Assembly (NCBI GenBank): GCA_031441465.1
Contig: JANOEP010000061.1
Span: 1-64,000 of the forward strand
Reading direction: 5' to 3'
Length of the DNA stretch: 64,000 nucleotides
DNA from: a bacterium
GTDB taxonomy: Bacteria > Krumholzibacteriota > Krumholzibacteriia > LZORAL124-64-63
The position numbers are program-made. Shown here piece after piece: positions 12,001-15,000 of this stretch. Numbering within the stretch: position 1 is the stretch's first letter; every line of letters starts with the position of its first letter.

Positions 12001-15000
12001 TTGTGGACAAGAAGAAGCGGCCCCCGCAACTGCGGGGGCCGCTTCGCTGTCCGTCCGGTCCCGGCGACCGGCGATCGCTGGTCCGCGATTACTTCGCGGC
12101 GGCCTCGGGCACCGGGTGCTTGATCAGGGCCCACATCTTGTCGTAGTCGAAAGCCTTGAAGGTCGGGCTCCCGGTGTTGTGGCACTTCACGCAGGTCTCC
12201 TTGCCGCCCATCTTCATGCCGGCGGCCATCGCGGCGGCGTGATCCTCCATGACGGCCTTGGACTTGTACTCGGAGCCGGCGCCGTGGCAGGCCTCGCAGC
12301 CCACGCCCTCCTCGGGCACCCACTTCGTGGCGGCCTCGAGCGCCACGCCCAGGAAGCCCTTCGTGGTGTGGCACTTCAGGCAGGCGGCCTCTTCCCAGGG
12401 ATTGCCCAGGCCCTTCTCCTTGGCGATGGCGATGGCCGCGGCGCCCTTCAGGGTGGCGAAGGCGCCGGCGTGCGCCGACTCGGTCCAGATCTTCGCCTGG
12501 TCGCCGGTCTTGACCTTGTGGCACATCACGCACTTGGGAGCGCCGATGATGGTGGGCTCGGCAGCCTGGGCGAGCGCGGCGCAGACCACCGTGAGCGCGA
12601 CCAGGACCAACAGGGACTTCTTCATGCTTCCTCCTTGCCGTGTGAATCGGCCGGATCAGTGTCGGAACCCCGGCCGGAAAACGTTCGGGTGACGTCGCCG
12701 CTCCCGATGGCCCGAATGTAAACGATCGATCCGGGCCGCCCCAAATAAAAAAGAGGTTCCCCGGGCCGTGATTCGCGTATCGAGAAAGAGAATCAAGACG
12801 CGAACCCAAGGCTGGGATGATCTTTGATATTCTGCTAGACTGATTGGAGTTCCCGTTCAGCGTGCCCGTCGCGAATTACAACCGGAGTCGAATTGTCCCG
12901 CATCCAGGAGAACACCCGATGATCAAGTGCCCGGTCTTCGCCTGTATCTGCTTGCTCCTGTTGCCGCTTGCGGTGCAGGCCGAGCCCCAGTTCGCCTGGT
13001 CGTCGCTGCTGGACAGCGGCGCCGCGCTGGACGACAACGGTGCGGTCGTGGTCGGCCACATTTCGGGCGACGCCGTGGTGGCCGGCGTCAGCCACGACGG
13101 CATCGACGGTTCGGACATCCTCGTGCGGCGCCTGTCGGCCGCGGACGGCGGCCAGGTCTGGTCGCGCCGCATCCCGTCGTTCGACACCTCGTCCATGTCG
13201 GTCACCGACCTGGCGTGGGACCAGGCGGGTGACTTGATCGTGGCCGGGCATGTCCTGGGCTGCGTGGGGTGAGGCCATGGTGACGACATCGTCGTGCTGA
13301 AGCTCGACGATGCGACCGGGGAGGTTCTCTGGTCCCAGCTGTACGCCTCGCCGAACGCCGAAAACGATTCCGCCTACGCCCTGGCCCTGAACGGATCCGG
13401 GGACATCTTCATCGCCGGCCGCGTCAACGTCGCGGGCCGGCTGGACGAGATCGCGCTGCTGAAGTTCGCCAACGTCGACGGCGAACTGCTCTGGACGGCC
13501 TTCGACGGCGGCGCCGCCCGTCTCGATGACCGCGCTCTGGACGTGGCCGTCGGTCCCGACGGCGATCCCGTGGTGACCGGCCTGATCCAGAACGCCAACG
13601 GCACGGCTTCGCTGCTGACCGCCAAGTACGCCACCGCCGACGGCAGTCCGGTGTGGGCCGTCCTGACGACCGGATTGGTCAACGACGCCAGCGGCGACGG
13701 CTGGCTCGGCGTCGACGCCGCCGGCGACGTGCTGGTCGCCGGCAAGGCCTGGCATGCCTCGACCTCGTACGACGTGCTCTGCGCCAAACTCGACGGCGAT
13801 GACGGGCAGCAGCTCTGGCGCGTGGACTGGACCAACGGCACCCGCTCGGACGACCCCGGCGGCATGCTCGTGGACGCGGCCGGCGACCTGGTCGTGGTCG
13901 GCGTCACCGGCGGCGACTACCTGACGGTCAAGCTGAGCGGGGCCAACGGCTCGCGGCGGTGGCTGTCGACCTACAACGGCCCGCAGGGCTGGTACGACGT
14001 GGCCAACGGCGCGGCGTTCGGCTCCGGCGGCGAGATCCTGGTCACCGGCTTCAGCGACGGCACCGGCACCAGCTGGGACGTCGCGACGCTCGGCTACGAC
14101 CCGGCCACCGGCGCCCAGCGCTGGGTGCGGCGCTACGACGGCCCGGCCCACCTGACCGACGAAGCCCGGAGCCTCGTGCTCGCGCCCGGCGGCTCCCTGT
14201 ACGTGACCGGCTACGCCTACGGCGACGCGACCAGCATGGACCAGGTGGTGCTGGCGTATTCCCATCCCGACCTGACGGACGCCGGCGACCTGCCCCCCGC
14301 ACCGGAGCCGTTGGCGGTATACCCCAATCCCTTCAATCCGTCGACGGTCGTGACGTACCGGCTCGAGGCGGCGGCGGCGGTGACGCTCGCGGTCCACGAC
14401 CTCGCGGGTCGGCTGGTCGCCGTGATCGACGGCGGGCGGCGCGATGCGGGATGGCATCGGGCGAGTTGGGACGGTCGAGACGAACGGGGCCGAGCCGCGA
14501 CGAGCGGCACTTACTTCCTGCTTCTGACGACAGAAGACGGGTTCAGGCAGACCAGAACATTGACGTTGTTGAGATGAAGCAGGGAGATGATCGCCGCGGG
14601 TAATGCCATGCCCGAGAGGTTGACGGCGGGGACGTTAGCACGTGTCCGCCGGGCGAGCTGTTATCCAGAAAACAAGCGCCCGGCAACCGCCCACGCGCCA
14701 GATGCTGCTCCCATTGTCTGACAGTTACCCCCTACCGCGAGGCCACAGTCAGCCGCAGGCTCACTGTGGTTGTTGCGTTCGATGACGCATTATTTAATAT
14801 AAGACCATTATCGTAGCGTTAAGTGGTTATCATTTGTACAATCGGTCCAGGACAGGCAGGACCGTGAATCGAGCATTGAAAGGGCAGGTTCAGGCTCGAA
14901 GAGATGTGCATGGGAATCTCGATCCAGCGAGCTGGAGACGGAAGAAATTCAACTCACGTTTCATCTGGCTTCATGAGTGAAAGGTGCAGTGTTCAATGAG

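Follow-up and report, generated by a model that had tools for sequence, protein, structure and literature searches.

A beta-propeller gene with a conserved in-frame TGA, probably representing an uncatalogued bacterial selenoprotein family

The gene, its in-frame TGA and its relatives

The window analyzed here, a 64,000-nt stretch of a Krumholzibacteriota contig, carries on its forward strand a gene of 552 codons including Sec118 (12919..14577, +), which starts with the ATG at 12919 and ends with a TGA stop at 14575–14577. An AGGAG motif resembling a Shine-Dalgarno sequence, read directly from the sequence, lies 8 nt 5′ of the ATG (12906..12910, +). Translation revealed a single interruption of the frame between 12919 and 14577, a TGA at 13270..13272 (+) corresponding to codon 118, in the context GHVLG-C115-V-G-U118-G-H-G-D-D (motif G-C-V-G-U-G-H-G-D-D). 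The codon of the putative partner of Sec118, Cys115, is the TGC at 13261..13263 (+). Upstream of the gene lie a multihaem cytochrome c7/c3 with 11 CxxCH motifs fused to a cytochrome b561 (9968..11983, +; PF14522, PF01292 and PF14537) and a divergent neighbour (12089..12625, −), a secreted tetrahaem cytochrome c with four CxxCH motifs that was the best-conserved of the four frames compared.

The genome encodes the selenocysteine machinery. Profile searches identified selA (437 bits), selB (359 bits), selD (343 bits), which is of the Sec type and contains one TGA itself, and tRNA-Sec (67.8 bits), each above its cut-off. Since the gene itself ends in TGA, and no internal stops interrupt selA or selB, TGA is not a general sense codon in this organism. 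The presence of selA does not mark the carriers of the gene, since 192 of the 201 genomes of the phylum have a selA above the cut-off. A genome-wide screen of GC content by codon position for other genes with an in-frame TGA was set aside, as its output consisted of antisense frames and neighbouring genes, with both the target and selD missed.

We found 67 orthologous copies of the gene in 66 of the 201 genomes, at 33–87% identity, counts that overstate the independent support because the carrier genomes are kin; all members come from metagenome-assembled genomes. The homology covers both sides of the TGA, and the architecture of the whole gene is common to all 67 copies, every one of which has one TGA and the same loop, with a Cys 3 (in some copies 4) residues ahead of U. 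Position +2 of U varies (H, Q, E, A, G, T or S) and is followed by an invariant G-D-D. In mid-distance comparisons, the differences at the three codon positions were coding-like both upstream (0.371/0.281/0.464) and downstream (0.301/0.263/0.396) of the TGA. Outside the 201-genome sample, the TGA is also present in four further genomes, and the genomes added by way of other loci number seven. A contig scan, for which an alignment of five sequences served as the query, returned 32 loci, 28 of which belong to the family (29 gene copies), with the TGA in 28/28. These larger counts agree with an earlier reading of this DNA, hereafter the initial annotation, which had described a conserved CxxU loop, a TGA always present at this column and one gene read through it. 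The conserved TGA, together with the Sec machinery of the genome, argues that the codon almost certainly encodes selenocysteine.

The initial annotation had also called the family specific to Krumholzibacteriota, which the distribution does not fully bear out. Within the 201-genome sample of the phylum, the family is found in two of nine GTDB families. The gene also occurs in four of the nine genomes of a further family, which includes metagenome-assembled genomes labelled Eisenbacteria or Gemmatimonadetes by their submitters.

The absence of a Cys form, another of the earlier claims, was borne out in the orthologues, the contig-scan loci, the distant homologues and the paralogues of the same genome, none of which has Cys at the Sec column. 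A regular expression and a blade 2 sub-profile, applied to 266 proteins, found no C..C loop, and the sub-profile gave no single-blade match above about 35 bits. A profile search of 1.84 billion representatives produced 487,912 hits at E ≤ 0.001, which were swamped by multi-propeller repeat proteins, so that the 150 hits listed were uninformative on Cys forms. Nearly all selenoenzymes have Cys homologues (PMC13188914); the criterion of Cys/Sec pairs, a customary but not an absolute support, cannot be applied to this family because no Cys homologue was found.

Two conserved hairpins downstream of the TGA

Two adjacent hairpins on the 3′ side of the UGA are maintained by compensatory changes. The first, H1 (13287..13312, +), starts 14 nt past the UGA and has an apical UGAA loop at 25 nt and an energy of −13.9 kcal/mol. 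The second, H2 (13314..13334, +), is formed by GACCGGGGA-GGU-UCUCUGGUC, with 9 bp, a GGU triloop 50 nt past the UGA and an energy of −11.5 kcal/mol; it is the hairpin that the initial annotation had placed 46 nt after the UGA. Among 65 distinct sequences, 96.9% of the cells of H2 are paired, with changes on both sides in four of its nine pairs, and the commonest register of H1 has 86.2% of its cells paired, with changes on both sides in five of nine. The observed pairing of H1 and H2 was reached by 0 of 500 shuffles, and slid controls were 33–58% paired. The synonymous sites of H2 are frozen as well (Val136 GTT in 53/54, Leu137 CTC in 56/56 and Glu135 GAG in 55/55), and Gly134 is encoded by GGG or GGA only, unlike the mixed codons used for Val, Leu, Glu and Gly elsewhere in the gene.

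We compared both hairpins with the bacterial SECIS model (PMC13188914, section 5), which specifies a loop of 3–9 nt with a G in its first two positions, a stem of 4–16 bp, a spacing of 16–37 nt and an energy of −7.5 kcal/mol or lower. H1, with its UGAA loop, fits all four constraints. H2 resembles the consensus in its 9-bp stem, its 3-nt loop starting with G-G and its energy, and departs from it in the 50-nt spacing and in the conserved 26-nt hairpin that occupies the interval. A scan of 13200–13450 against Rfam at E ≤ 10 found no SECIS family, only two chance matches.

The selD genes of the lineage provided a second comparison. In the class, a GGN-triloop hairpin lies 17–20 nt past the UGA at 15 of 25 selD sites, and at eight of nine sites when only the two families with the propeller gene are counted; GCCCGGA-GGA-UCUGGGC is one example. 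In sequence, H2 is nearly the same as the selD hairpin (CCGG..A-GGN-U..CUGG). The selD hairpin starts 13 nt past the UGA, versus 14 nt for H1. The selD hairpins split into two registers, with few sequences in each. GGN triloops on stems of at least 9 bp are infrequent, with five in the 128 kb of both strands of the window.

Because H2 nearly duplicates the hairpin found after the UGA in the lineage's own selD, we consider it the probable SelB-binding SECIS hairpin by analogy, and because H1 is placed exactly where a SECIS would normally begin, it is probably a folded spacer. SelB would then bind H2 through its GGU triloop and CCGG...CUGG stem, and the folded H1 would bring H2 to a working distance despite the linear gap. 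The earlier concern that the candidate SECIS lies at an unusual distance from the UGA is largely answered by the second conserved hairpin filling the gap and by the likeness of H2 to the selD SECIS, while the loop of H2 is still 50 nt away.

Alternatively, in a genuine selenoprotein gene, H1 itself might be the SECIS, since its 25-nt spacing fits the model and its second loop base is G, with H2 being a separate conserved element such as a pause or stability signal. The dimensions of H1 (a 4–7-nt loop and an 8–10-bp stem) and its changes on both sides of the stem agree with this reading. Against it, the G-G/U pattern of the model is missing from the loop of H1 (UGAA or UGAAGCU), which is also unlike the GGN triloop of selD, the register differs between clades, and the synonymous sites are far more frozen in H2. 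In addition, H1 encodes D-D-I-V-V-L-K-L-D; GAC (Asp) is the reverse complement of GTC (Val), so that the protein sequence alone may account for some of its pairing. We regard H1 as the less likely SECIS and retain the reading of H2 as the probable SECIS with H1 as its spacer.

Export, fold and possible function

The first 21 residues (12919..12981, +) were judged by eye to form a signal peptide, with MIK at the start, a hydrophobic core and a VQA|EP cleavage motif. The structural model places a helix of low pLDDT at residues 5–17, and the N-termini of the orthologues are of the same kind. At the other end, residues 466–552 (14314..14574, +) form a C-terminal beta-sandwich sorting domain (FlgD_ig/T9SS type A), which scored 41 bits against PF13860 (FlgD_ig; cut-off 27), 28.1 against TIGR04183 (cut-off 23) and 13.7 against PF18962, below the cut-off of 27. 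The same domain is encoded at 111 other places in the genome, which also contains SprA (summed score 470.8, cut-off 200), a full-length PorU-like gene below its cut-off (403 vs 420) and, adjoining it, a PorV-like gene likewise below (95 vs 250). The putative signal peptide upstream of the TGA and the type IX domain of the initial annotation, the latter with the same TIGR04183 score, were both recovered. The protein would be exported by the Sec pathway, with its signal peptide cut after Ala21, would fold into a propeller, and would be handed by its C-terminal domain to a type IX-like system, leading to release or surface attachment.

The predicted structure (pLDDT 86.1, compared with 81.8 for an earlier model of the same fold; pTM 0.74) has 32 strands that build eight four-stranded blades, spanning residues ~24–448 (12988..14262, +), followed by the beta-sandwich. 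In this model, two strands of blade 2 are separated by an inserted loop of 10 residues that contains Cys115 and Sec118, and confidence is lower in this loop than anywhere else in the propeller (pLDDT 65 for residues 111–120). From the strand topology alone, the conserved residues may lie on one face of the propeller. Besides Cys115 and Sec118, D122, D123, R168, D311, D312, W358, D360, W386, D387, D414, E415, Y432 and D441 are invariant in the family.

The description of the propeller as SBBP-type derives from distant homologues, which carry PF06739; the window protein itself has no match to this family at E ≤ 1, and its match to the SBBP lipoprotein model NF047494 (LipL53 family) is weak as reported, 50.2 bits against a cut-off of 400. 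In both the distant full-length homologues and the paralogues of the same genome, the blade 2 loop is short and has neither Cys nor Sec, in agreement with the earlier statement that distant SBBP proteins lack the loop; the CxxU loop is, as judged from these sequences, specific to the family. The eight-bladed SBBP/PQQ-like propellers with a T9SS domain that are not selenoproteins (P0063, P0071, P0085 and others, as well as the paralogues L159–L162 of the same genome), together with the solved relatives BamB and YxaL, share this short loop and also lack the family motifs GPxGWYD, SDGxGTxWD and GYxY.

PQQ quinoprotein dehydrogenases are eight-bladed propellers with tryptophan-docking repeats that have a cytochrome c partner and, beside the active site, a redox-active disulfide. 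Among the matches listed, there is no PQQ dehydrogenase, and the likeness to these enzymes is a lead only.

The initial annotation had reported no conserved neighbours. Clustering of the neighbours of 66 loci indeed found none common to the whole family, but the divergent tetrahaem cytochrome c adjoins the gene in 17/17 loci of the window's subclade. Cytochrome neighbours are present in 19 of the 66 loci overall and in two of the 49 outside the subclade, and the upstream multihaem cytochrome recurs at 13 related loci with a flank long enough to include it.

As far as can be read from the sequences, the likeliest role of the protein is in extracytoplasmic Cys/Sec redox chemistry, an assignment that we hold tentatively. 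The substrate would be extracytoplasmic, and Cys115 and Sec118 would act on it as a selenenylsulfide/selenolate redox couple, possibly wired to the multihaem cytochromes c in the window's subclade. In a competing and somewhat more doubtful reading, the Cys115/Sec118 loop would not be a thiol-type oxidoreductase centre but would bind soft metals or metalloids (Cu, Hg, As, Se or Te species) in order to capture, sense or detoxify them at the cell surface. The invariant G-D-D after the loop and the frequent His, Gln or Glu at position +2 would suit such a site, and metal binding is known for several of the listed selenoproteins with CU or CxxU motifs (Table 1 of PMC13188914). The window also encodes, 3 kb downstream, a secreted cupredoxin that shares the sorting domain. 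However, the +2 residue varies among the orthologues, and the cupredoxin has no tblastn match at any related locus.

A selenoprotein family beside the known ones

Reading the TGA as a true stop would leave two genes, the first for an exported peptide of 117 residues and the second, from the GTG at 13294, for a cytoplasmic propeller fragment of 427 residues. ORF calling with table 11 does produce these two ORFs (12844..13272 and 13294..14577), and all database entries are called in this manner: the closest relatives are truncated at 378–436 aa (397–430 in the initial annotation) and cover ~66–78% of the query, some of them carrying PF13360 in their precomputed annotation. Such a split would fall within blade 2 of the propeller, and the downstream product would have six and a half blades and a secretion domain but no signal peptide. 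The full-length homologues that lack the loop are single proteins. The TGA, the frame and the flanking motif are moreover kept in 67/67 copies down to 33% identity, and the hairpins with compensatory changes lie 3′ of the TGA, making two separate genes very improbable. That the TGA is a sequencing or assembly error, marks a pseudogene or specifies a different amino acid in an altered genetic code, for which nothing specific speaks beyond the errors possible in metagenomic assemblies, is hardly credible, because the TGA recurs in 66 genomes and an independent assembly of the possible source run has the identical 2101 bases, with no other letters. The best explanation is that the gene encodes a true selenoprotein from an uncatalogued family, to which we assign a probability of about 0.85. 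Since the TGA would then encode selenocysteine, the two pieces annotated in databases correspond to one exported protein.

The family is absent from the 119 families in Table 1 of a 2026 review (PMC13188914), which has no propeller, SBBP or FlgD entry, and the word 'propeller' has 0 occurrences in this article, upholding the earlier claim that the family is not in the published lists. The review cites Deng et al. 2026 (Cell Rep 45:116760) for further candidate selenoproteins, and those lists could contain it. In NCBIfam release 20, no selenoprotein model matched.

The bacterial CxxU selenoproteins of the review (such as GrdA, SelW-like, AhpD-like and Prx-SUH; PMC13188914) resemble the window protein in that their UGA is decoded by SelA, SelB, SelD and tRNA-Sec, with a Cys three residues before Sec and an intragenic stem-loop. 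Unlike them, the window protein is predicted to be a propeller rather than thioredoxin- or AhpD-like, yielded no Cys homologue, and has its selD-like hairpin at 50 nt, behind another hairpin. Selenocysteine in an exported protein is shared with the FCYXU TonB receptor (NF049945), which also has CxxU, the GSU2204/MtrB-PioB barrel (NF041027) and the ExtKL multihaem cytochrome (NF040886), two of which are linked by name to extracellular electron-transfer proteins. The window protein, in contrast, would be neither a membrane barrel nor a cytochrome but a propeller in soluble form, with a type IX-like sorting domain.

The family is thus unusual among the listed bacterial selenoproteins, which are mostly thioredoxin-like, in its propeller fold, its type IX-like destination and its Sec-only occurrence. 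It explains why annotation truncates such genes to ~400–430 residues, and standard prediction based on Cys/Sec pairing and a SECIS at 16–37 nt could overlook it because it has no Cys partner and its selD-like hairpin lies at 50 nt. If functional, the arrangement of spacer and hairpin would widen the accepted geometry of the bacterial SECIS. The gene is also a candidate for an extracytoplasmic function that depends on selenium, in an uncultured phylum with selA in 192 of the 201 genomes sampled. More speculatively, the SECIS may be split, with Sec insertion by the SelB-binding H2 dependent on the folded spacer H1, and the product may be an obligate-selenium surface enzyme without a Cys form, its redox chemistry linked to the multihaem cytochromes. 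If this combination, which we think possible at best, were true, bacterial selenoproteomes may be missing a sizeable group of secreted propeller proteins.

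The in-frame UGA and its conservation

On the forward strand, 12919-14577 forms a single reading frame of 552 sense positions, with an AGGAG motif 8 nt 5′ of the ATG at 12919 and a stop TGA at 14575. The frame is interrupted solely by the TGA at 13270-13272 (codon 118), in the context GHVLG-C-V-G-U-G-H-G-D-D. Standard ORF calling cuts the gene into 12844..13272 and 13294..14577, and only the second piece (427 a.a.) is represented in the public databases. The closest database relatives are 378-436 a.a. long, align to ~66-78% of the query and carry names such as "FlgD immunoglobulin-like domain containing", "PQQ-binding-like beta-propeller repeat" or "T9SS type A sorting domain-containing" proteins. 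A 540-a.a. open frame antisense to the entire gene (12835-14457, reverse strand) is an artefact usual at 70% G+C, and no gene. An assembly slip at the TGA is disfavoured by an independent assembly of the possible source run, which matches the window over 2101 identical bases, a match not independent of the source DNA.

The genome (3.49 Mb, 74 contigs, 96.8% complete) encodes selA (437 bits), selB (359 bits), selD (343 bits) and tRNA-Sec (67.8 bits), each above its curated cut-off, and selD contains one in-frame TGA of its own. A search for orthologues in 201 genomes of the phylum (E ≤ 1e-30) matched 66 genomes with 71 match rows. The N-terminal region is spanned by 67 rows, each with exactly one TGA, and the other four are weak partial matches beginning at residue 123 or later, without TGA. 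All 67 copies, at 33% to 87% identity to the window protein, were fetched and read: the TGA lies in the same loop, with Cys three (in some, four) residues upstream and G-D-D downstream. The codon-position differences on both flanks follow the pattern of coding sequence. In one genome (locus L065, G030:C8:45341-48676), the gene is present as a tandem duplicate with TGA in both copies, the loop being C-G-G-T-U in one and C-G-T-U in the other.

Besides the window's genome, itself of GTDB family f1, the gene was found in 54 of 86 f1 genomes and 11 of 12 genomes of family f2, whereas 102 genomes sampled from families f3-f9 gave no match. We further scanned one genome per species with two peptide patterns, one of them (C[VE]GCGHGD) having Cys in place of Sec in the loop. 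Family members account for 28 of the 32 resulting loci (29 gene copies), with TGA in all; the other four (24-31% identity) lack the loop altogether. The MAGs bear submitter labels of Krumholzibacteriia, Latescibacterota, Fibrobacter(aceae), Eisenbacteria or Gemmatimonadetes; several are the same contigs as f1 and f2 genomes, so that the labels are no proof of a wide distribution. The MAGs labelled Eisenbacteria or Gemmatimonadetes belong to one further GTDB family, in which 4 of 9 genomes have the gene, with TGA in all.

RNA-library contigs from a ~91% identical relative (two libraries of one study) cross the UGA, one in the assembled run X19 (record 10, 13051-14120) and one in X20 (record 18, 12962-13766), with no difference at 13270-13272 among the 40 of 194 differences listed. 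Since RNA libraries can contain DNA, these contigs give at most a weak hint of a transcript spanning both gene halves.

Protein fold, export and the CxxU loop

By eye, residues 1-21 have the look of a Sec-type signal peptide, with neither a lipobox nor a twin-arginine motif. The structure model, built from a 16-sequence alignment (pLDDT 86.1, pTM 0.74), has 32 strands forming eight four-stranded blades (residues 24-448), after which come a linker modelled with low confidence (452-462) and a beta-sandwich (466-550); its best solved Foldseek matches are CylK, BamB and PorZ. In this model, the Sec loop (114-123) lies within the second repeat, between its strands 106-113 and 124-129, and confidence in the propeller is lowest there (pLDDT 65 for block 111-120). 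The invariant family-specific residues (D122, D123, R168, D311, W358, D360, W386, D387, D414, E415, Y432 and D441) sit in equivalent loops or second-strand starts of repeats 2, 3, 6, 7 and 8, and by the antiparallel-meander topology they are predicted to lie on one face of the propeller.

The C-terminal domain scores above the cut-off for PF13860 (41 versus 27) and TIGR04183 (28.1 versus 23) and below it for PF18962 (13.7 versus 27). The genome also encodes SprA (470.8 bits summed, versus 200) and a full-length PorU-like gene (C10:158289-161636; 403 versus a cut-off of 420) adjoining a PorV-like gene (C10:157445-158119; 95 versus 250). The sorting domain together with these genes makes a type IX-like export route likely, short of proof because the PorU and PorV scores are below the cut-offs. 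The same sorting domain is encoded at 111 other places in the genome, a very large predicted secretome for 3.5 Mb.

No Cys form of the loop was detected. Full-length distant homologues (24-30% identity, 531-563 a.a.) have a shorter loop with neither Cys nor Sec at the Sec position. A search limited to residues 70-170 returned eight proteins, seven of them truncated family members and one, of 489 a.a., without the loop. The nearest same-genome paralogues (four readable of five) run complete from signal peptide through eight repeats to the C-terminal domain, and their loop is short, without Cys or Sec. Among 266 proteins (closest relatives and profile-search matches), none has a C..C version. 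The CxxU loop is thus a family-specific insertion, Sec-only across everything searched. Since nearly all selenoenzymes have Cys homologues (PMC13188914), this pattern is unusual, and the missing Cys form also takes away one standard line of support for a selenoprotein.

Two hairpins downstream of the UGA

The initial annotation had placed a single conserved hairpin after the UGA; a hairpin is indeed present, but there are two, side by side. The proximal hairpin, H1 (13287-13312, forward strand; -13.9 kcal/mol), begins 14 nt past the UGA, with an apical UGAA loop 25 nt past it. The distal hairpin, H2 (13314-13334, forward strand; -11.5 kcal/mol), reads GACCGGGGA-GGU-UCUCUGGUC, with its GGU triloop 50 nt past the UGA. 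We scored covariation on an alignment of 65 distinct sequences. For H2, 96.9% of the cells are paired and four of nine pairs show both-side changes (e.g., G-C to C-G in 11 sequences); the second copy of the tandem duplicate also has compensatory changes here (A-U to C-G). For the commonest register of H1, the values are 86.2% and five of nine pairs, and a second register, that of the window's own genus, is paired at 79.4% overall. None of 500 shuffles reached the observed values, and sliding the partner by 1-3 columns reduced the pairing to 33-58%. Synonymous sites in H2 are frozen (Val136 GTT 53/54, Leu137 CTC 56/56, Glu135 GAG 55/55; Gly134 exclusively GGG or GGA), whereas nearby positions use mixed codons for these amino acids, which points to selection on the H2 RNA itself. 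H1 encodes D-D-I-V-V-L-K-L-D, and because GTC is the reverse complement of GAC, its ability to pair is in part a by-product of the protein sequence.

The published bacterial SECIS model (PMC13188914) has a loop of 3-9 nt with G within its initial two positions (mostly G then G/U), a stem of 4-16 bp, a UGA-to-loop distance of 16-37 nt and an energy of at most -7.5 kcal/mol. H2 fits its loop pattern but not its spacing, whereas H1 fits the spacing. To learn what SelB encounters in this lineage, we gathered the selD genes of 31 class genomes. selD is a selenoprotein gene in the window's genome (L011, G000:C25:35277-36200) and in most of the class (L129-L157); four copies are of the Cys type (G011, G017, G020 and G021), and G017, G020 and G021 hold both types. 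A hairpin with a GGN triloop lies 17-20 nt past the UGA at 15 of the 25 readable UGA-type sites, including 8 of 9 sites in f1 and f2. Typical examples, GCCCGGA-GGA-UCUGGGC and GGUCC-GGA-GGACC, are close to CCGG(GG)A-GGU-U(CU)CUGG of H2, and GGN triloops on stems of at least 9 bp are rare (five in the window's 128 kb, both strands counted). From this likeness and rarity, we think that H2 is the SelB-binding element. H1 starts about where the selD hairpin does (14 versus 13 nt past the UGA) and is 26 nt long, so it probably acts as a folded spacer that would hold H2 within reach of the UGA. That H1 itself is the SECIS, as its spacing would allow, we consider less likely beside the selD-like features of H2.

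Genomic setting and possible function

Between 11983 and 12919, the true gene encodes a secreted tetrahaem cytochrome c (178 a.a., four CxxCH; 12089-12625, reverse strand) and is transcribed divergently from that of the selenoprotein. Of four frames compared, this one shows the strongest conservation, and the longer overlying ORFs (11910-12809, reverse; 12116-12721, forward) are spurious. The cytochrome gene is kept at each of the 17 loci in the window's subclade, where identity to the window protein is 47-87%, but outside the subclade a multihaem ORF of any kind lies nearby in only 2 of 49 loci. The earlier statement of "no conserved neighbours" thus holds for the family as a whole, but not for this subclade. 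Further upstream, a gene at 9968-11983 (forward) joins a cytochrome c7/c3 carrying 11 CxxCH to a cytochrome b561 membrane domain; it also occurs at 13 related loci with a flank long enough to include it. Directly beside the selenoprotein gene, four loci (L045-L047 and L067) have a 13-CxxCH cytochrome c of ~390-400 a.a.

Downstream are a 796-a.a. Reg_prop propeller (14984-17374, forward) and a plastocyanin/azurin-type cupredoxin (17461-18168, reverse), both with the same FlgD_ig sorting domain and without tblastn matches in related loci. Since a DUF4097 "toastrack" gene directly adjoins the selenoprotein gene in six related loci (L039-L044) and is displaced to 18321-19217 (reverse) in the window, these two cargo genes look like an insertion in the window's genus. 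Judged from gene content, the local setting is one of extracytoplasmic redox proteins, with no partner conserved family-wide.

Our best guess, with a probability of about one in three, is that the protein is a surface or secreted oxidoreductase cycling between selenolate/thiol and a Cys115-Sec118 selenenylsulfide. CxxU is the commonest redox signature among the selenoproteins tabulated in PMC13188914, the strictly retained Sec favours a catalytic over a structural role, and cytochromes are neighbours in the window's subclade. On about equal footing, the Cys115/Sec118 loop may be a binding site for a soft metal or metalloid.

Table 1 of PMC13188914 (119 families and subfamilies) contains no entry for a propeller, SBBP or FlgD-domain protein, and NCBIfam release 20 has no selenoprotein model matching the window protein. 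In full-text searches, taken without supplements, nothing relevant joined Krumholzibacter with selenocysteine or selenocysteine with "type IX secretion", and selenoprotein and SBBP were not found together; within the same scope and leaving aside Deng et al. 2026, no bacterial beta-propeller selenoprotein was evident by title or abstract. Taken together, the propeller family belongs among the bacterial selenoproteins, and its displaced SECIS with a spacer hairpin may be a new variant among them.
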